DNA of 24,000 nucleotides from Candidatus Polarisedimenticolaceae bacterium (GTDB lineage: Bacteria > Acidobacteriota > Polarisedimenticolia > Polarisedimenticolales > DASUFT01): NCBI GenBank assembly GCA_036274395.1, contig DASUFT010000099.1:1-24000 (forward strand), read 5' to 3'. Below the pieces are notes generated by a model. It was not told the DNA's origin. It did no database searches and worked only from the letters and a program-made list of their open reading frames with translations. Shown here in pieces: positions 3,995-18,927 of this stretch. Every line of letters starts with the position of its first letter. The first letter of the stretch is position 1. A program made the position numbers and the translations under genes.

Positions 3995-4600
3995 ATGACG
4001 CGCGGCGGCTGGCTAGCCTCGAGCCTGGCGATGGTGGCGCTTGTGGGCGCCTGTGGTCCGGGTGTGGTGCGCGAGCTGACCGTCTCCTCGGCTCCGGTCC
4101 CGCCCGGAACCTACACGCGTCCCGCATTTCGACCGGCGGTCACCCTCGAGCTTCACGAGGGCTGGACGCCCGTGAACGGGTTCGACGATTTCTTCGACGT
4201 CGAGCGGGATGTCGGCAGCCCGGACGTGATCGCCGTCCAGATCGCGTGCCCGCGGGGATTCGTCGGCCGAGCGGGGGTCCAGCCCGCCGATACCCCGGGG
4301 CAGGCGCACGTGGTGCTGTCCGAGAACCCTGGCCTCACGATGGGGCCGTCGAACGACTGCAGGATCGGCGGGCTCGTGGGGCAGGTCTTCGACGTCGAGA
4401 ACGGGTCGGGGCGGCACGTCGGCATCATGGAGCTCAGTCCCGGGACGCTCGGGATCGATCCGGGCCGGAAGCTGCGGATCGCCTGCTTCTCCACCCCGCA
4501 CGGGCTCGTGGCCGTCATGGTCGGAGGCTCGGTGGCGAGATGGAAGGACGCGGAGGCTGCGGCCCAGCCGGTACTGGACTCGATCCGCTTCACTCCCTAG
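3995..4600 (+). CDS. Hypothetical lipoprotein
   Basis: This is the in-frame ATG at 3995 within track ORF 2930..4600. The N-terminus MTRGGWLASSLAMVALVGAC has a lipobox (LVGAC). The upstream part of the track ORF is a shadow of the minus-strand gene. No family recognised. Confidence 0.7.
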   Translation: MTRGGWLASSLAMVALVGACGPGVVRELTVSSAPVPPGTYTRPAFRPAVTLELHEGWTPVNGFDDFFDVERDVGSPDVIAVQIACPRGFVGRAGVQPADTPGQAHVVLSENPGLTMGPSNDCRIGGLVGQVFDVENGSGRHVGIMELSPGTLGIDPGRKLRIACFSTPHGLVAVMVGGSVARWKDAEAAAQPVLDSIRFTP

Positions 4601-5046
4601 CGCGCGGCACTGGACGTTTCCGCCCAGCCGCGGAGGAGAGCGCGGTCCTCCTCGCTCAGGCGTGCTTCCGGATGCATGCGCAGATAGTTCGGGAGCGGCA
4701 TCTTCCCCTCCTGCACCTCGTCCCACACCTTGGCCGCCACTCGCGCGCGCTTCCTTGCGCTGGCCCGGTTCCACTCCTGGAAGTTCAGCTCCTTGCGTCC
4801 CTCGTGGACGTCGTCGGCCACCCTCCAGGACACCGGAGCCACGTAGGCGTACCAGGGCCAGCGCGTCTGGTTGGAGTGGCAGTCGAAGCAGGAGCGCTGC
4901 AGCACGGCCAGGACGGGCGGCGGTGCGGGGACGACGCCCTGCTCGGGCGGGTTGCTCCGGTCCACGGGGACGAGCTGGATGCCCGCCACCAGGACGAGCG
5001 CCCCCAGGAGGAGGATGCGAAGCCAGCGCCTCACGCCGCGGGCCAT
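4597..5046 (-). CDS. Haem-binding-domain (CxxCH) membrane-anchored protein
   Basis: 149 aa from ATG 5046 (MARGVRRWLRILLLGALVLVAG TM/signal anchor). It has a CFDCHS haem-c type motif followed by WPWYAYVAPVSW, as in the Haem_bd domain family. The start overlaps the stop of the upstream gene by 16 nt. Confidence 0.75.
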   Translation of the reverse strand: MARGVRRWLRILLLGALVLVAGIQLVPVDRSNPPEQGVVPAPPPVLAVLQRSCFDCHSNQTRWPWYAYVAPVSWRVADDVHEGRKELNFQEWNRASARKRARVAAKVWDEVQEGKMPLPNYLRMHPEARLSEEDRALLRGWAETSSAAR

Positions 5047-6245
5047 ACCGCCACCGAGGAGCCCACCCAGTCGAGGCCCTTGTTGTGGTCCACCCCGTGC
5101 ATCTTCCCCCGCGACAGGCGGACGAGGTTGATGGCCAGCGTCATGCGATCCTCGCCGTCCGGCCGGAGGAACATCATGCGGATCTCCGCCTTCACCCCGG
5201 CGCCGTCCGGCGCGATCAGCGCCGGAGCGTAGACCACCTTCTCCTGGAGAAGCCAGTGCGCCTGCTCCCCCTCGGGGATGCTCTCGATGAACGCGCGGTC
5301 CACGTCCACCTGCACGCCCTGGCCGGCGAAGGAGAACAGCGGTTTCAGGATGTAGCCGGAGAGATCGTCGGGGAGCCGGTCCACCTCGGAGAGGATGCGG
5401 GTGCGCGGCACCGCGGGGTGGTCGAGGTGAGGGAGGGTGGCCTTGGACCAGAGCCAGTACCACGTCGGGTGCGCCGCCCACACCACGTCCAGGTCGTCCC
5501 GGTAGTCGAAGGGGAGCACGGTGCGCCTGCGCTCCAGCTCGTCGAAGACGATCCGGTGCAGGATCCGCCGCACGGGCACGTACCGCTCTCCCAGGGGGGC
5601 CAGCAGGCGCCGCCCCTCGCGCTTCAGCTCGGTGGCGCACACCGCCCGCACACCCAGCAGGCGGGCGGTGGCGTGGAAGTCGGGACGGGTCTTCTGCGAG
5701 GCGGGATCGAGATCGAGGAGCACCACCTCGTCGGGGGCGGCGTCGGCGAGCACGGTGCGCCGCAGGAGGTCGAGGTACCCCTCGCGCGCTAGGTTGGAGA
5801 AGAGTCCCGTCCACCGCTCCGGCATGCCGGGGATGGCCGCCAGGACCTCCCCCCAGATCTCGCTCTGCACGAGCTGCATGCCGTAGAGGGAGGAGAAACC
5901 CTGCAGCTCGATGAGGCGGGGGACGAGGCGCCCCTCCCCGTCCTGGGCGATGGCGAGGTCGATGGAGTTGAAGTGGGGAAGGGCGTCCCGGCCCGGCGTG
6001 CGGTAGCGCTCGGGGACCGCAGCCTCGCCGGCGGCGAGGATCTCCGGCCGCCGGAGCTGCTCCTGGATCTCGCCGGCCACGCGCACGCAGGCCTCGCGCA
6101 GGTCGTCCGGGAGCAGCAGGGGCGTTTCCGCCAGCCTGAACTCGAAGCGCGGGGTGGCCAGGCGCTCGTCCATGAGCGCGCACATCTGCCGGTAGAGGTG
6201 GGGCCGGTAGTTACGGTTGAAGATGGGCCGGAGACGGGGATCCAT
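5031..6245 (-). CDS. Uncharacterised 404-aa protein, putatively a circularly permuted ATP-grasp-like ligase
   Basis: The start is ATG at 6243-6245 (MDPRLRPIF), overlapping the upstream stop as ATGA. The upstream part of track ORF 5031..6719 is a shadow frame. The order of elements resembles circularly permuted type-2 ATP-grasp proteins: IDLAIAQDGEGRLVPRLIELQGFSSLYG (E-x-N/Q-like segment) comes early, ILKPLFSFAGQGVQV (glycine-rich loop) comes late, then KAEIRMMF and LVRLSRGKMHGVDHNKGLDWVGSSV. That similarity is judged by eye only. Confidence 0.5.
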   Translation of the reverse strand: MDPRLRPIFNRNYRPHLYRQMCALMDERLATPRFEFRLAETPLLLPDDLREACVRVAGEIQEQLRRPEILAAGEAAVPERYRTPGRDALPHFNSIDLAIAQDGEGRLVPRLIELQGFSSLYGMQLVQSEIWGEVLAAIPGMPERWTGLFSNLAREGYLDLLRRTVLADAAPDEVVLLDLDPASQKTRPDFHATARLLGVRAVCATELKREGRRLLAPLGERYVPVRRILHRIVFDELERRRTVLPFDYRDDLDVVWAAHPTWYWLWSKATLPHLDHPAVPRTRILSEVDRLPDDLSGYILKPLFSFAGQGVQVDVDRAFIESIPEGEQAHWLLQEKVVYAPALIAPDGAGVKAEIRMMFLRPDGEDRMTLAINLVRLSRGKMHGVDHNKGLDWVGSSVAVWPAA

Positions 6246-13719: not shown

Positions 13720-13962
13720 ATGCAGACGAAGATCCAGAAGTGGGGGAACAGCCTGGCCGTGCGGATCCCCAAGTCCTTCGCGGAGGAAGCCGGGGTTTCC
13801 GCTGGCTCTCAGGTGGACCTGACCGTGCGTGAAGATGGCCTCCTGGTTCGACCGGCACGGGCGCGAAGGCCCAAGCTCCGGGACCTTCTTCGAGCGGTCA
13901 AGAAGTCCAACCTTCACGGCGAAGTGAAGACCGGGAAGCCCGTCGGGAAGGAGACCTGGTAG
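13720..13962 (+). CDS. mazE: AbrB/MazE/SpoVT-family antitoxin
   Basis: ATG at 13720 with GGAGG 7 nt upstream. MQTKIQKWGNSLAVRIPKSFAEEAGV is the classic swapped-hairpin MazE/AbrB N-terminus. It sits 3 nt upstream of a PemK/MazF gene. Confidence 0.85.
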   Translation: MQTKIQKWGNSLAVRIPKSFAEEAGVSAGSQVDLTVREDGLLVRPARARRPKLRDLLRAVKKSNLHGEVKTGKPVGKETW

Positions 13963-13965
13963 TCG

Positions 13966-14310
13966 ATGGGCCGGCCTCCCGCCCGTGGCGATCTCGTCTG
14001 GCTCGAGTTCGACCCCCAGGTTGGAAGCGAACAGGCGGGTCGCCGTCCAGCGCTGGTCCTCTCGCCCAAGGAGTACAACGGCAAGGTGGGTCTGGCGCTG
14101 TGCTGCCCGATCACCTCGCACGCGAAGGGCTACCCGTTCGAGGTCGCCCTTCCGGAGAGTCTTGGAATCCGGGGCGTCGTCCTCTGCGACCAGATCAAGA
14201 GCCTGGACTGGCGGGGCCGGCGCGCCCGGAGGATCACCTCCGTGCCAGACGAGGTCATGCACGACGTGACGGGGCGAGTCCTGGCCCTGGTCGATCCCGA
14301 CGGTTCCTAG
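13966..14310 (+). CDS. mazF: MazF/PemK-family endoribonuclease toxin
   Basis: 114 aa. The motifs RGDLVWLEFDPQVGSEQAGRRPALVLS and CCPITSHAKGYPFEV and VVLCDQIKSLDW are typical PemK/MazF signatures. Confidence 0.9.
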   Translation: MGRPPARGDLVWLEFDPQVGSEQAGRRPALVLSPKEYNGKVGLALCCPITSHAKGYPFEVALPESLGIRGVVLCDQIKSLDWRGRRARRITSVPDEVMHDVTGRVLALVDPDGS

Positions 14311-14320
14311 GGAGGGGGCG

Positions 14321-14752
14321 TCAGTTCCCCTTGCCGGCGGGCATCGTCTCCTTGTACTCCTCGGCCCGGGTGACCTTGACCTTCTCGGCGATGGCTGGAT
14401 TCGCCAGGCGCTCGAGCTTGCGGTCGGTCTCCTCCCGGATCGCCCTTGCCCGGTCGACATCCTTGTTGAGGACGGCCAGGTGCGCGAGGAACTCCTCGGC
14501 GGCGATGGTGTGATAGTCGTCCCCGCCAAACTCCTTCCAGGCCTGCGCCACCGCCTCTTCCGCCTCCGGCAGGGCCTTCTCGAACTTCCGGTCGGCGTAG
14601 AGTTCCGCGGCCTTGCTCGCCGCGTCCTCGGACCGGACTGGCTCGGGCTCGGCCTGCCGGGAGGCCACGGTGTTGGCGGAGGCCGTCCCCGCCTGCGGGG
14701 TCAGGGCCAGGCGGAGCATCAGGACAAGGACAACCTGGAGCGCTTCGATCAC
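14321..14752 (-). CDS. Small secreted helical (TPR-like) protein, hypothetical
   Basis: This is the C-terminal 143 codons of track ORF 14321..15172. A GTG start at 14752 has GGAGG 12 nt upstream. An alternative TTG at 14779 gives MSIRRYTRAVIEALQVVLVLMLRLAL, a better signal peptide. The rest is helical and charged (AAELYADRKFEKALPEAEEAVAQAWKEFGGDDYHTIAAEEFLAHLAVL). Confidence 0.55.
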   Translation of the reverse strand: MIEALQVVLVLMLRLALTPQAGTASANTVASRQAEPEPVRSEDAASKAAELYADRKFEKALPEAEEAVAQAWKEFGGDDYHTIAAEEFLAHLAVLNKDVDRARAIREETDRKLERLANPAIAEKVKVTRAEEYKETMPAGKGN

Positions 14753-14840
14753 GGCCCTTGTATACCTCCGGATCGACAATCGCGCAGCAAGATAGAACTT
14801 TTCGCGCCTAACAACACTAACGTCGAGAGAGGTGAGCGCG

Positions 14841-17393
14841 ATGAGATCCAGCAGTGGGGTGGCCTTCCTGACCCTCGTGACTCTCGCAGGCCTGCTAGTT
14901 TCACCGACGCCTTTGCCCGCCGCCGTGGTGCCGGTGGACGACGGCGGAGGTGGGGGCGGAGGTGGGGGCGGGGGCGGCGGGGGGACGCCACCTCCACCTC
15001 CACCACCCATTTGCACGCGCACCTCGCGGCTCAATCTCTCGCCGCTGGCCCAGGCCGTCCTCACGAACATCGAGACCACCTCGGGCGCCCTGGCCAAGTC
15101 CCCGACCGTGCAGAGCCTGCTCCTGACCACGTGCAATAAGCTCGAGTCTGTCCGTGTGGACGGGCCGGACATCTACGCAGGCATCCGGGATGTGATCGCC
15201 CGAGCCGATCACGAGGTGGAGATCGCCTACTACGTCTGGGAGAACGACTGTCATGCGGCACAGAGGATCGGGGAAGGTCTGATCGCCGCGCAGGCCAATC
15301 AATCGGCCTCACAGCCTCTCATCGTCCGGTTCCTCGTGGACGAGCACGCGGACTCCATCAACGACCTGCTCGTGTCTCGCTCGGACTGGATCAGCGGGGG
15401 CCTGGACACGCATCGCGTCCAGCTCCAATTCGGGGAGTCGGAGAGGAACACGGTCCTGGACGCCAACTTCCACGACAAGTACGTCGTCGTGGATGGGATG
15501 TACGTGGTCGTGACCGGCGCCAACGTGGAGAAGGTGCACAACGCCAAGACACCTCCGCAGCAGCCGTGGCACGACACCGCCTACATCGTGCAGGGGGATG
15601 CCGCGCTCTCGGCGCTCTCCGCCTTCGAACAAGTGTGGTACCGCGAGGGGACGGAGTTCTTCGAGTGCAACAACGGGGGGTGCTGGCAGCGAGCGTCCCG
15701 GTTCCCCGATCCCCCCCGGGACTGGTTGCCCGAGGAACCCAACGTCGTGGGAAACGTGCCGGTGCTGGCGGTGGGCAAGAAGCACGACTCGGGAGGGCTC
15801 GATCCCCCGAACGAGACCAACAACCCGCAGGACATCGCCTGGCTGACCGTGATGGACGGCGCGTACTACCGCATCGACATCGAGTCCCCCAACCTGAACG
15901 ACGACGCCTTTCGCGCAGCCGTCACCCGGGCGGTGGGGAGGGGGGTGACCGTCCGACTGATCGCCGCCGAAGGATTCAACGATGGGGGAGCAGATCTGCT
16001 GGGTGGGGACAACCAGGAGGTCGTCGGCGACCTGAGAGAGGACATCCGCGCGCTGTATCCCAGCCAGGCCTCCAAGTTCCAGGTGCGCTGGTACAGTCGG
16101 GACGGGCGCGAGATGATCAACGGGAACGAGGACGGGAGCGGCGCCAACCACACGAAGTACATGAGTGTCGACGATCAGCTGGCGATCGTCGGCTCGGGGA
16201 ATCACGAGACACCGGCCTGGAACATCTCCCACGAGTTCAATCTGTTGCTGGACGATCCGACCGCGACGGGACAGCTCCAGAACGCCGTGTTCACCCGCGA
16301 CTGGAGCTCGTCCATCGGCCGTTATGCGGAGATGTACGAGGGGAACGGCGGCACGCAGGACATGATCTGCCCCATCGGCATGCCTTTGGGTGTGGCGCGC
16401 ACGGAGCGGCTGGACGGGGATCCCTGCTCGAACGACGAGACGCGTTCGCTCCTTCTGCACGACGTCACCACCGGGCAGGTCCTGCGCCTCTACGACGACC
16501 CCGACGGACGATGGCAGGATGACGATTGGACGGAGATCCGCATCAAGAGGCCAGTGCCCCGGAAGTACATCGACACGTACGAGACATCCTCCGAGGACGA
16601 CGACGTCCGCGTGATCGCCCATCGGAACAACGGTCTGGACGGCAAGGTCTCGTTCGCCGAGGTGGCCTTGAGCCCGGCTGGGCCGGTGCTGGATCTCTAC
16701 GAGGGGAACGGAGGTACGCAGAACCTCGTGTGCTCGCGGAGGATCGGTGGACCGGAGACGATCGACCTCACCCAGGACGCGTCATGCAACAACGACGAGG
16801 CCAGGTCGCTCGTCCTCTACGACTGGCCCGCGGACCGCGTCATCTTCCTCTACGACGATCCCGGTGGAAACACGCAAGACGACTGGACGGCTATCGTGCC
16901 CAAGCGCGCGCTCCCCGCGAGCACGGTGAGCTCGTTCGAGACGGAGGTTTCGAACGCGGACTTCTCCGTCTATGCCTTCCGGAACAACGGACTCGACGGG
17001 AAGGTCTCCCGGATGCGGATCGGCAGCCCGAGCGAGATCGTTCCTATGGTCTCCTTCTACGAGGGAAACGGGGGCACGCAGAACAAGACCTGCGACGTCA
17101 ACCTCTACACCCGCATGGTTGACTTCACGAGCAACAGCCTGGGATGTGACAACGACGAAGCGCGCTCCCTCGTTCTCTCCTTCGCCAAGGTGGGCACCGT
17201 CCTCGATGCCTTCGACGATCCGGATTGCACCACCAACGACGACTGGACGCGTATCGTGGTGAAGCGTGAGCTGGGCAGGAAGCTGATCGGCACCTTTCAG
17301 TACTCATTTGAGGATGCCGACGTCGACGTCGACTTCCACCCGGACAACGGGCTGGATGGCAAGGTGTCCTGCATCCGGATCACCGTGCCCTAG
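14841..17393 (+). CDS. Secreted phospholipase-D-superfamily (dual HKD) protein with a Gly/Pro tract and three C-terminal ~120-aa repeats
   Basis: ATG at 14841, with GAGAGAGGTGAG upstream; the track starts at GTG 14832. The signal peptide is MRSSSGVAFLTLVTLAGLLV. A G14-T-P7 tract follows. Two HxK(x)4D motifs are present: HDKYVVVDGMYVVVTGAN and HTKYMSVDDQLAIVGSGN. Three tandem repeats then start with YEGNGGTQ. Confidence 0.85.
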   Translation: MRSSSGVAFLTLVTLAGLLVSPTPLPAAVVPVDDGGGGGGGGGGGGGGTPPPPPPPICTRTSRLNLSPLAQAVLTNIETTSGALAKSPTVQSLLLTTCNKLESVRVDGPDIYAGIRDVIARADHEVEIAYYVWENDCHAAQRIGEGLIAAQANQSASQPLIVRFLVDEHADSINDLLVSRSDWISGGLDTHRVQLQFGESERNTVLDANFHDKYVVVDGMYVVVTGANVEKVHNAKTPPQQPWHDTAYIVQGDAALSALSAFEQVWYREGTEFFECNNGGCWQRASRFPDPPRDWLPEEPNVVGNVPVLAVGKKHDSGGLDPPNETNNPQDIAWLTVMDGAYYRIDIESPNLNDDAFRAAVTRAVGRGVTVRLIAAEGFNDGGADLLGGDNQEVVGDLREDIRALYPSQASKFQVRWYSRDGREMINGNEDGSGANHTKYMSVDDQLAIVGSGNHETPAWNISHEFNLLLDDPTATGQLQNAVFTRDWSSSIGRYAEMYEGNGGTQDMICPIGMPLGVARTERLDGDPCSNDETRSLLLHDVTTGQVLRLYDDPDGRWQDDDWTEIRIKRPVPRKYIDTYETSSEDDDVRVIAHRNNGLDGKVSFAEVALSPAGPVLDLYEGNGGTQNLVCSRRIGGPETIDLTQDASCNNDEARSLVLYDWPADRVIFLYDDPGGNTQDDWTAIVPKRALPASTVSSFETEVSNADFSVYAFRNNGLDGKVSRMRIGSPSEIVPMVSFYEGNGGTQNKTCDVNLYTRMVDFTSNSLGCDNDEARSLVLSFAKVGTVLDAFDDPDCTTNDDWTRIVVKRELGRKLIGTFQYSFEDADVDVDFHPDNGLDGKVSCIRITVP
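14943..15008 (+). repeat. Homopolymeric-amino-acid coding tract (14 Gly, Thr, 7 Pro) containing a canonical G-quadruplex motif at 14952..14984
   Basis: The codons are ggc gga ggt ggg ggc gga ggt ggg ggc ggg ggc ggc ggg ggg acg cca cct cca cct cca cca ccc. G-runs lie at 14952-56, 14964-68, 14970-74 and 14979-84, separated by loops of 7, 1 and 4 nt. Confidence 0.85.
16335..17390 (+). repeat. Three tandem in-frame repeats (363, 360 and 333 nt) inside the PLD-like gene
   Basis: Repeat units start at 16335, 16698 and 17058 with tacgagggRaacggNggNacgcag (YEGNGGTQ). Shared landmarks are C...C(N/S/D)NDE(A/T)RSL(V/L)L, (Y/F)DDP, DDWT.I..KR and NGLDGKVS..(R/E)(I/V). Pairwise identity is roughly 45-50% by eye. 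Confidence 0.85.
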
Positions 17394-18382: not shown

Positions 18383-18850
18383 TCACCCTTTCGTCTTTCC
18401 CCGGGTCAGGCGAGGGTCGAGACGGAACGGCTCGACCGCGTGCACGGAGAGCTGCCGCGCCTCGGGGTGGGCGGGGTTGAGGAGGAGGTTGCTCTCCCCC
18501 GGGACCAGCGCGGACGGAACCGACAGGACGGCCGTGCGCCGCGACTCCGCCCACGTGGACCCGAGGCGCCTCAGCTCCTGCGGGTGCTCGGGAGCGTCCC
18601 AGCCCTGGGGAAGGTCCTCAGGGAGCACCCGCTCGACGGAGGCGTCGTCGGGGAGTGCGCCGGCGATCGCGACCAGCTCCGTGTCCTCGTCACCGTCCTC
18701 GGCGTGCGCGAGGTACTCGAGCGCGGCGAGCGCGCGCGACTCCGAGGCGTAGACCAGACGGGTTCCCGCCTGATTCCAGCGGCCGGGCGTGTCCGCGCCC
18801 GCGAAGGCCCGGGGGCACTCGGCGCGCGGGCAGATCCTCCACAGGAGCAT
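18383..18850 (-). CDS. RES-domain toxin-like protein (NAD+-targeting toxin family)
   Basis: MLLWRICP...GRWNQAGTRLVYASESRALAALEYLAH...VLSVPSALVPGESNLLLNPAHPEA...VEPFRLDPRL carries the conserved Arg, Glu and Ser regions of the RES domain. The start is ATG 18850 or GTG 18868. The TGA stop lies 2 nt from the qor ATG. Confidence 0.85.
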   Translation of the reverse strand: MLLWRICPRAECPRAFAGADTPGRWNQAGTRLVYASESRALAALEYLAHAEDGDEDTELVAIAGALPDDASVERVLPEDLPQGWDAPEHPQELRRLGSTWAESRRTAVLSVPSALVPGESNLLLNPAHPEARQLSVHAVEPFRLDPRLTRGKTKG

Positions 18851-18927
18851 GCTCCCGTAGCATGCCACGCCCCGTCTGGCAGCCGGCGCCGCTTCCAGGT
18901 AGAGTCAGGGCCACACCCGAGGCTGCC

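Follow-up and report, generated by a model that had tools for sequence, protein, structure and literature searches.

A predicted exported phospholipase D-type protein carrying three copies of an undescribed C-terminal module in a Candidatus Polarisedimenticolaceae bacterium

The DNA studied here (the window in what follows) is a stretch of 24,000 nt of contig DASUFT010000099.1 from a Candidatus Polarisedimenticolaceae bacterium (GCA_036274395.1, positions 1 to 24,000 of the forward strand, about 70% G+C), and our subject is a gene in it that encodes a putative secreted enzyme of the phospholipase D (PLD) superfamily. The gene lies on the + strand at 14841..17393 and encodes 850 amino acids followed by a stop codon; it is supported by the open reading frame (ORF) itself, a Pfam PLDc_2 match (E 1.8e-20), homologues and an AlphaFold2 (AF2) model. 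The ORF ends at 17393 and could start at GTG 14832 or ATG 14841. We prefer the ATG because a Shine-Dalgarno-like AGGTGA read from the sequence (14830..14835, +) lies 5 nt before it, and the same start and 850-aa product were given by a gene call made independently on L016, a public contig of 5 kb with identical sequence.

The encoded protein, all parts of which are on the + strand, begins with a hydrophobic segment that resembles a signal peptide (about aa 1-29, 14841..14927; n-region MRSSSG, h-region FLTLVTLAGLLV, maximum Kyte-Doolittle hydropathy 2.5), and equivalent N-termini are found in homologues. It is followed by a low-complexity spacer (aa 35-56, 14943..15008) that by residue count consists of 14 Gly (aa 35-48), Thr 49 and seven Pro (aa 50-56), by a bilobal catalytic core (aa 57-494, 15009..16322) and by three C-terminal repeats delimited by repeat comparison and hidden Markov model (HMM): copy 1 at aa 495-615 (16323..16685; all-beta in the full-length model), copy 2 at aa 616-735 (16686..17045; modeled on its own by AF2) and the 'terminal-type' copy 3 at aa 736-850 (17046..17390), which ends the protein. 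Window protein and lipobox do not go together: the first Cys is aa 58. The 13 Cys residues, with conserved pairs in the core and one in each module, fit an extracytoplasmic protein, and from the N-terminus we infer that the protein is exported by a Sec-type route. Within the core, HKD motif 1 (HDKYVVVDGMYVVVTGAN, aa 211-228, 15471..15524) reads H211-x-K213-x4-D218-x7-G226-x-N228 and HKD motif 2 (HTKYMSVDDQLAIVGSGN, aa 437-454, 16149..16202; Pfam PLDc active-site motif at aa 434-452) reads H437-x-K439-x4-D444-x6-G451-S-x-N454, so that one chain holds two HxK(x)4D strings (H211-D-K-YVVV-D218 and H437-T-K-YMSV-D444). The initial annotation of this gene had listed a signal peptide, a Gly14-Thr-Pro7 spacer, two complete HKD motifs and three repeats of about 120 aa; all are found as described, except that motif 1, though intact, has the tail T-G-A-N and not the G-(S/A)-x-N that had been given for both motifs.

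To place the protein among known sequences, we ran two word-indexed searches of 5.8 billion proteins. The full-length query retrieved no more than 24 relatives and the isolated core 32, every one of them from metagenomes or metagenome-assembled genomes (MAGs). The best relative in these searches is 47% identical, homologue identities range from 46 to 60%, and one protein (P0035) is a fragment of the window protein from another sample (98% identical). Their names are generic ('phospholipase D-like domain-containing protein', 'PS/PGP/cardiolipin synthase-like enzyme'), and no close homologue from either search has an assigned function. A single-protein scan of species-representative genomes found nothing, and an alignment-based rescan of the same genomes found 15 loci. 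Full-length relatives in species-representative genomes come only from two Thermoanaerobaculia MAGs (53% identity), and relatives of the core only (27-36% identity) come from Saprospiraceae, Sericytochromatia, Polyangia/Myxococcota and Oligoflexales/Bacteriovoracales.

The architecture, which had been called unusual, is less singular than it appeared, since 17 relatives share the core together with 1-4 modules; the module itself is undescribed (see below). Many relatives add further domains, namely F5/8 type C, CARDB-like, pretoxin-HINT or Cys-rich repeats. In P0003, P0006, P0008 and P0011, two modules are followed by one or two copies of a Cys-rich unit of about 75 aa that has no Pfam annotation (CGEASC..AAYISHFTG..CTG.E.YYTPYF..DG.RRSW), and a Cys-rich repeat of another kind (NCRDITD..R..CY) is present in P0005 and P0014. 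P0009 (L019, 6001-8742, from a Thermoanaerobaculia MAG) combines the PLD core and two modules with a C-terminal pretoxin-HINT domain (PF07591), an architecture typical of polymorphic toxins.

Membership of the core in the PLD superfamily is borne out by Pfam, where PLDc_2 (73.5 bits versus a cut-off of 27, in two stretches) and PLDc (27.4 bits versus 21.9) both score above their cut-offs; the same scan found no further domain in aa 57-494, including PX, PH and C2. In the family alignment of the 24 relatives, K213, D218, G226, H437, K439, G451 and N454 are invariant and H211 is kept in at least 90%; Cys276 and Cys281 are also invariant, and Cys58 nearly so. We note that in P0012 the first HKD His is replaced by Asn (FNDKFIVVD, aligned to aa 211), which may mean that this protein is inactive or that its sequence contains an error. 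For the full protein, AF2 modelling from the 24 family sequences gave a model that has a mean predicted local distance difference test score (pLDDT) of 83, with most of the core at 85-98 and residues 1-47 disordered. Searching this model against the PDB with Foldseek gave 128 matches at E<=1e-3, and the best 50 of the 128 are all PLD-superfamily enzymes. Streptomyces PLDs account for each of the 17 best matches (E 1e-23 to 6e-21; top structures 2ZE4, 1F0I, 1V0Y and 9LVN plus engineered variants, with target-normalised template modeling (TM) scores of about 0.65), followed by Moritella PLD (E 2e-20). Phosphatidylserine synthases (PssA), the PLD3/PLD4 exonucleases and human PLD2 appear at about 1e-13 to 1e-14, which places PssA and PLD3/4 some 7-10 orders of magnitude below the Streptomyces PLDs. 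At the sequence level, phmmer searches of the PDB returned only S. klenkii PLD 9LVN (4.6e-7), Serratia PLD and Moritella PLD as significant matches.

Based on family, fold and conserved residues, we read the core as a two-HKD phosphodiesterase of Streptomyces type in a predicted exported protein, and as most likely a phospholipase D as judged from sequence and predicted structure; the low identity and the modest sequence E-value indicate a sister subfamily of the characterised secreted PLDs rather than an orthologue. PLDs work by a ping-pong mechanism, in which one HKD His is the nucleophile that forms a phospho-enzyme intermediate and the other is the general acid (PMC9550806), and every residue needed for it is present in the window protein. 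The two lobes would contribute H211/K213/D218 and H437/K439/D444, packing into a single active site; one His would attack the phosphorus of the head-group diester of a glycerophospholipid to give a phosphatidyl-histidine intermediate, with the second His serving as general acid, and water or an alcohol would then release phosphatidic acid or a transphosphatidylation product.

HKD chemistry is common to nucleases and lipases, so we also considered an extracellular nuclease or other non-lipid phosphodiesterase (Nuc or PLD3/PLD4-like) that would degrade DNA or RNA for nutrients or for biofilm remodelling. PLD3/PLD4 structures are indeed significant fold matches, NCBIfam gives weak NucT and DrmC matches (both far below cut-off), and the C-terminal module also accompanies EEP and metallophosphoesterase domains, which are often nucleases. 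We nevertheless hold this to be improbable: the Streptomyces and Moritella phospholipases match the fold far better than PLD3/4 by the margin just given, only phospholipases are among the significant PDB sequence matches, NucT reaches 15.7 bits against a cut-off of 297, and the module also accompanies PI-PLC-X, an enzyme of lipid head groups.

A lipid-directed alternative follows from the best NCBIfam match, the bacterial cardiolipin synthase TIGR04265 (E 1.9e-12), and from the lipoboxes of some relatives. PLD-family enzymes catalyse transphosphatidylation and surface-exposed Cls enzymes exist, such as ClsO of Acinetobacter (PMC12846801), and the protein might accordingly be an extracytoplasmic cardiolipin or phospholipid synthase that remodels the cell's own outer membrane. 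Lipoboxes (LFGC, NISC, VGAC, LPAC, AGAC and TVGC) are seen in P0001, P0018 and P0020-P0023, which are predicted lipoproteins and would be membrane-anchored; P0005-P0014 have no lipobox, like the window protein, so the family appears to mix anchored and free forms. Since P0001 and core-only relatives carry lipoboxes, we rate this alternative slightly higher than we otherwise would, and still as very unlikely. The window protein itself lacks a lipobox, its TIGR04265 score is 46.9 bits against a cut-off of 290 (PRK12452, 31.8 bits versus 787, and ClsB, 17.1 versus 281, are likewise far below), and its fold is closest to soluble secreted PLDs. The gene lies in a patch of lower G+C at third codon positions (GC3) with a toxin-antitoxin module and not among genes of envelope biogenesis, and its C-terminal array also occurs on proteases, as would be expected of degradative enzymes that are secreted.

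The sole new element of the protein is its C-terminal module, which is a widespread and previously undescribed domain family. The three copies in the window protein are 47-48% identical with 40 invariant columns, and their HMM domain E-values (about 1e-60) are far beyond chance. The module is about 118 aa long and is marked by the signatures YEGN..Q, C..C-NDEARS, DDW and NGLDGKVS. The initial annotation had not recognised it, and we found no Pfam, NCBIfam or PDB sequence match for it either: the three repeats match nothing in Pfam, even at E<=10, NCBIfam has nothing there, a profile from 96 stand-alone proteins (see below) matches no Pfam family and no PDB chain, and no indexed paper contains the motif strings of the module. 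SH3_9 and SH3_3 matches in 9 and 4 of the 96 stand-alone proteins, respectively (best E 0.0017), were rejected as noise from the 'YDD...DDW' composition. The conserved Cys pair, together with Asn, Asp and Glu at many invariant positions, points to a domain that is stable outside the cell and perhaps binds cations. An AF2 model of copy 2, built from an alignment of 36 copies, has a pLDDT of 92.5 and nine beta strands.

We compared this model with known structures using Foldseek, and the top three matches are microbial βγ-crystallins (clostrillin 3SO0 and flavollin 3HZB; probability 0.99-1.0), with every other match at a probability of about 0.2 or less. The crystallin matches are weak (E 1.3e-2 to 2.1e-2, TM 0.42-0.45 by query and 0.57-0.60 by target, root-mean-square deviation 8-9 A). 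We had first suspected a canonical βγ-crystallin, with its double Greek-key beta fold, from YEG..., NDEARS, YDD... and LDGKVS, and we rejected this candidate after signature, hhalign, Pfam and PDB profile comparisons. Each Greek key of a βγ-crystallin carries YxxxxY/FxG and a Ca2+-binding N/D-N/D-x-x-S/T-S (PMC3551895). In the module Y5 and Y56 are conserved, with G/A and G/R at +5 and Q and Q/T/R at +7, so the first signature is absent; the second is absent as well, as motif 1 (N-D-E-A-R-S) has an invariant Arg at position 5 and motif 2 (L-D-G-K-V/I-S) retains only the D and the final S. Pfam Crystall and I36 match neither the repeats (E<=10) nor the 96 stand-alone members (E<=1), two module profiles (A2 and A5) retrieve no crystallin from the PDB at E<=10, and aligning the module with a canonical crystallin domain in hhalign yields a probability no higher than 1.3%. 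The positive control was P0066, whose canonical domains match Protein S, clostrillin and flavollin as well as lens γ-crystallins, with E-values from 1e-9 to 1e-5. The nearest known fold of the module may therefore be βγ-crystallin-like, as far as the model goes, without the module being a member of that family. A literature search found nothing relevant on a βγ-crystallin plus PLD architecture. P0066 itself (WP_006030342.1, Moritella sp. PE36) combines a PI-PLC-X domain with a pair of canonical βγ-crystallin/I36 domains and two copies of the module at the C-terminus; coming from a cultured organism, it would be a tractable system for studying the module.

Searching 1.84 billion cluster representatives exhaustively with a profile (E<=1e-3), we were able to identify the module in at least 901 of them (638 at E<=1e-10), with 1-8 copies each, from Gammaproteobacteria, Thermoanaerobaculia, Myxococcota, Bacteroidota, Actinomycetota and Chloroflexota. 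Among 66 proteins inspected for partner domains, the partners are reprolysin-like M12B (7), PLDc_2 (6), astacin (5), FG-GAP (5), metallophosphoesterase (3), EEP (2), PI-PLC-X (2) and subtilase (S8; 1). Stand-alone module proteins of 110-215 aa are found in Vibrio, Archangium, Cystobacter, Pedobacter, Mucilaginibacter, Chitinophaga, Geodermatophilus, Chloroflexota and one fungal record. Each is named 'hypothetical' and lacks a Pfam domain, and those of Archangium and Cystobacter are annotated 'Lipoprotein'. The fungal record (P0253, Cunninghamella echinulata), next to at least six bacterial phyla, points to either an inter-kingdom distribution or contamination of the fungal assembly.

The copies of an array are not interchangeable. 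In 37 of 45 arrays the last copy is closest to window copy 3, and in 32 of 45 the penultimate copy is closest to copy 2. A reprolysin-like protease encoded at the locus of P0001 (L017) has the same four-copy array as P0001 (45-60% identical, with the terminal copies most alike). These position-specific copies and the array shared by P0001 and the protease mark the array as a cassette of long standing and fixed order, passed around between secreted hydrolases. A recent local triplication was rejected on the 47-48% identity between copies and on their position-specificity across unrelated enzymes.

The three modules would form an ordered accessory array like those on many other secreted hydrolases, most likely holding or targeting the enzyme to a surface (membrane, cell envelope or polymer), possibly by Ca2+-dependent binding; alternatively, the array could stabilise the enzyme outside the cell. 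Our more specific proposal is tentative: internal types followed by a terminal type would be an ancient targeting device shared by secreted phospholipases, metalloproteases, PI-PLC and phosphoesterases, directing them to a common target, for instance a membrane or a ligand on the cell surface, perhaps by Ca2+-dependent binding. If so, the ligand of the module would explain how unrelated secreted 'attack' enzymes are aimed. The array stops within 5 residues of the C-terminus in 46 of the 66 proteins, a distinct conserved terminal-type copy closes the chain and the partners are typical secreted proteases and lipases, all of which would also suit a cassette for C-terminal secretion, sorting or maturation (PPC-like) that is removed from the mature enzyme. 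We regard such a cassette as unlikely given that stand-alone module proteins exist, some of them annotated as lipoproteins, that in most PLD-family members the module is internal with other domains after it, that copy number ranges from 1 to 8, and that the host phyla share no dedicated secretion system with a C-terminal signal.

The Gly14-Thr-Pro7 tract does not belong to the family. In homologues with an intact N-terminus, mostly about 0-15 residues separate the signal-peptide-like segment from the conserved Cys (part of the motif C-x-R-x-x-R-x-x-LS), and the roughly 29 extra residues before this Cys, including G14-T-P7, are found in the window protein only. Because the homologues lack these extra residues, the tract is, on sequence comparison, a private low-complexity insertion, and it would act as a flexible linker from signal peptide to core with no catalytic role. 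Its DNA (14943-15008) contains an exact 12-nt tandem duplication (GGCGGAGGTGGG x2) and, owing to the complementarity of GGN and CCN, an inverted repeat of the two (arms of 20 nt, 85% complementary). The corresponding RNA folds into a hairpin of -42.2 kcal/mol (z -2.9; matched by 2 of 200 shuffles), which probably just reflects the complementarity of Gly and Pro codons.

Upstream of the PLD gene lie mazE (13723..13962, +; Pfam MazE_antitoxin, 7.5e-16) and mazF (13966..14310, +; Pfam PemK_toxin, 2.8e-28), as the initial annotation had said, and a divergent 143-aa ORF (14321..14752, -), which is supported by the L016 gene call and by a coding-type GC3 of 0.91; we treat all three as neighbours only. 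The 143-aa ORF had been described as a small secreted TPR-like protein. Its divergent orientation stands and its N-terminus is hydrophobic, but secretion is unproven and the likeness to TPR is weak, amounting to one TPR_12-like unit (NCBIfam FxSxx_TPR, 21.6 bits versus a cut-off of 300; no Pfam match). GC3 is 0.80 in mazE, 0.84 in mazF and 0.86 in the PLD gene, as compared to 0.92-0.96 in flanking genes, and overall G+C falls to 0.63-0.66 across the PLD gene, which is compatible with 13723-17393 being a small horizontally acquired patch.

Other genes in the window encode a PD40-amidohydrolase, a GCS2 glutamate-cysteine ligase, an SDR, an ArnT-like membrane protein, a quinone oxidoreductase, a RES toxin, a sulfatase-TPR protein, EamA and a metallophosphoesterase. 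The RES-domain toxin gene (18383-18868, -; Pfam 4.1e-24) shares 1 nt with the start of the gene for the quinone oxidoreductase, and no Xre/DUF2384-type antitoxin partner was identified upstream of it; together with mazEF, it puts the PLD gene between two toxin-antitoxin-type loci. A haem-binding-domain ORF (4597-6183, -) has a non-coding-like GC3 of 0.57 and a domain match that covers only aa 398-522, so the real gene there is probably much shorter than the listed ORF. A promoter and terminator scan gave nothing above shuffled expectation.

The initial annotation had brought in Tle5/PldA-type effectors as a comparison, and with it the idea of an interbacterial toxin, or of a toxin tied to its neighbours with the 143-aa protein as immunity protein or partner and mazEF in the same module. 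Tle5 effectors are HKD phospholipases whose exported cognate immunity proteins are encoded adjacently (PMC9550806), and the neighbour here is small, possibly exported and weakly TPR-like; in addition, P0001 lies beside Tc-toxin-like genes and P0009 has its pretoxin-HINT domain. This idea did not survive and we give it almost no credence. A Sec-type N-terminus is incompatible with delivery by a type VI secretion system (T6SS), no vgrG, hcp, PAAR or other T6SS gene and no toxin-complex gene was found in any ORF of the 24-kb window, the predicted fold is closest to Streptomyces PLDs and not to eukaryote-like PLDs, and PldA is unmatched in the PDB by sequence at E<=1 and absent from the top 50 fold matches. 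Nor are the neighbours conserved: tblastn (E<=10) of the 143-aa ORF, MazE and MazF found no relatives at homologue loci L001-L015 and L017-L020 and matched only L016, which is the window sequence itself, and four homologue neighbourhoods on contigs of 35-164 kb share nothing with one another or with the window. Nothing in the analysis favours a new toxin-immunity system.

One homologue locus has a character of its own. In L017 (2235-4472 and 9020-14928) the reprolysin-like protease gene and that of P0001 are separated by a single gene, with Tc-toxin-like genes (TcA_TcB_BD, SpvB/TcdB/RHS) downstream and a phage integrase upstream, and the region looks like an island of secreted 'attack' proteins.

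Taken together, we consider it probable that the gene encodes a Sec-exported phospholipase D of Streptomyces type with an incidental Gly/Pro linker, in which the three modules are a shared targeting or stabilising array. The protein would be an extracytoplasmic, disulfide-containing phosphodiesterase that scavenges phosphate and head groups from exogenous membranes or attacks the membranes of other cells. Of this picture, the features of the sequence, the family, the predicted fold and the spread of the module are observed, whereas export, a lipid substrate, what the module does and the role in the cell are proposals. Several points weigh against this view. Identity to characterised PLDs is only about 20% and the best sequence E-value is a modest 4.6e-7, and neither activity nor substrate can be read from a sequence. 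Some relatives are predicted lipoproteins, so that a cell-bound, self-directed role for the family is possible. The function given to the module is purely what we infer, as its link to βγ-crystallins is weak in Foldseek (E about 1e-2) and fails at the sequence level, and the genomic context offers no functional clue.

As an enzyme, the protein is nothing unusual within a well-understood superfamily. At most it represents a divergent subfamily of secreted PLDs from uncultured lineages, which may be of use to groups that search among PLDs for transphosphatidylation biocatalysts. Accessory beta domains on a secreted PLD would not greatly surprise a specialist, and they raise no long-standing question. 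A description of the module, on the other hand, would help to annotate hundreds of proteins now called 'hypothetical' and give a testable handle on the targeting of exoenzymes.

Among known systems, P. aeruginosa PldA/Tle5 with Tli5 (PA3488) shares the two-HKD phospholipase D chemistry, and the small, possibly exported, helical-repeat neighbour in the window superficially recalls its immunity gene. PldA is a 122 kDa, eukaryote-like, T6SS-delivered protein paired with a conserved immunity protein (PMC9550806), whereas the window protein has a Sec-type N-terminus and a core like that of Streptomyces PLDs, its neighbour is not conserved, and T6SS genes are absent from the window. ClsO, a surface lipoprotein of Acinetobacter, is likewise an extracytoplasmic PLD-superfamily enzyme, and some relatives of the window protein are predicted lipoproteins as well; the window protein differs in its missing lipobox, a Cls-family score far below cut-off and a fold nearer to soluble PLDs. 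The closest system is Streptomyces PLD (1F0I/1V0Y from strain PMF, 2ZE4 from S. antibioticus and 9LVN from S. klenkii), also an exported single chain with a bilobal core of about 440-500 aa, two HKDs forming one active site and no PX, PH or C2 domain, and it is both the best fold match (E 1e-23, TM about 0.65) and the best PDB sequence match. Against this stand the identity of about 20%, the placement of the window protein in a separate small subfamily of uncultured lineages, and the N-terminal Gly/Pro linker and three C-terminal modules, which Streptomyces PLD does not have.

For the module, βγ-crystallins (clostrillin 3SO0, flavollin 3HZB, Protein S) are comparable as small all-beta extracellular domains that often occur in tandem on secreted proteins, and NDEARS and LDGKVS are located where the N/D-N/D-x-x-S/T-S motifs would be; a crystallin domain has about 85 aa, in contrast to the roughly 118 aa and nine strands of the module. 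Our working analogy is with accessory domains of the PPC/collagen-binding, PKD and CBM types. The module differs from these in having no sequence relationship to any Pfam family, and it resembles them in what is generally known of such domains, which are tandem beta-sandwich modules at the C-termini of secreted proteases and lipases and are shuffled between catalytic partners.

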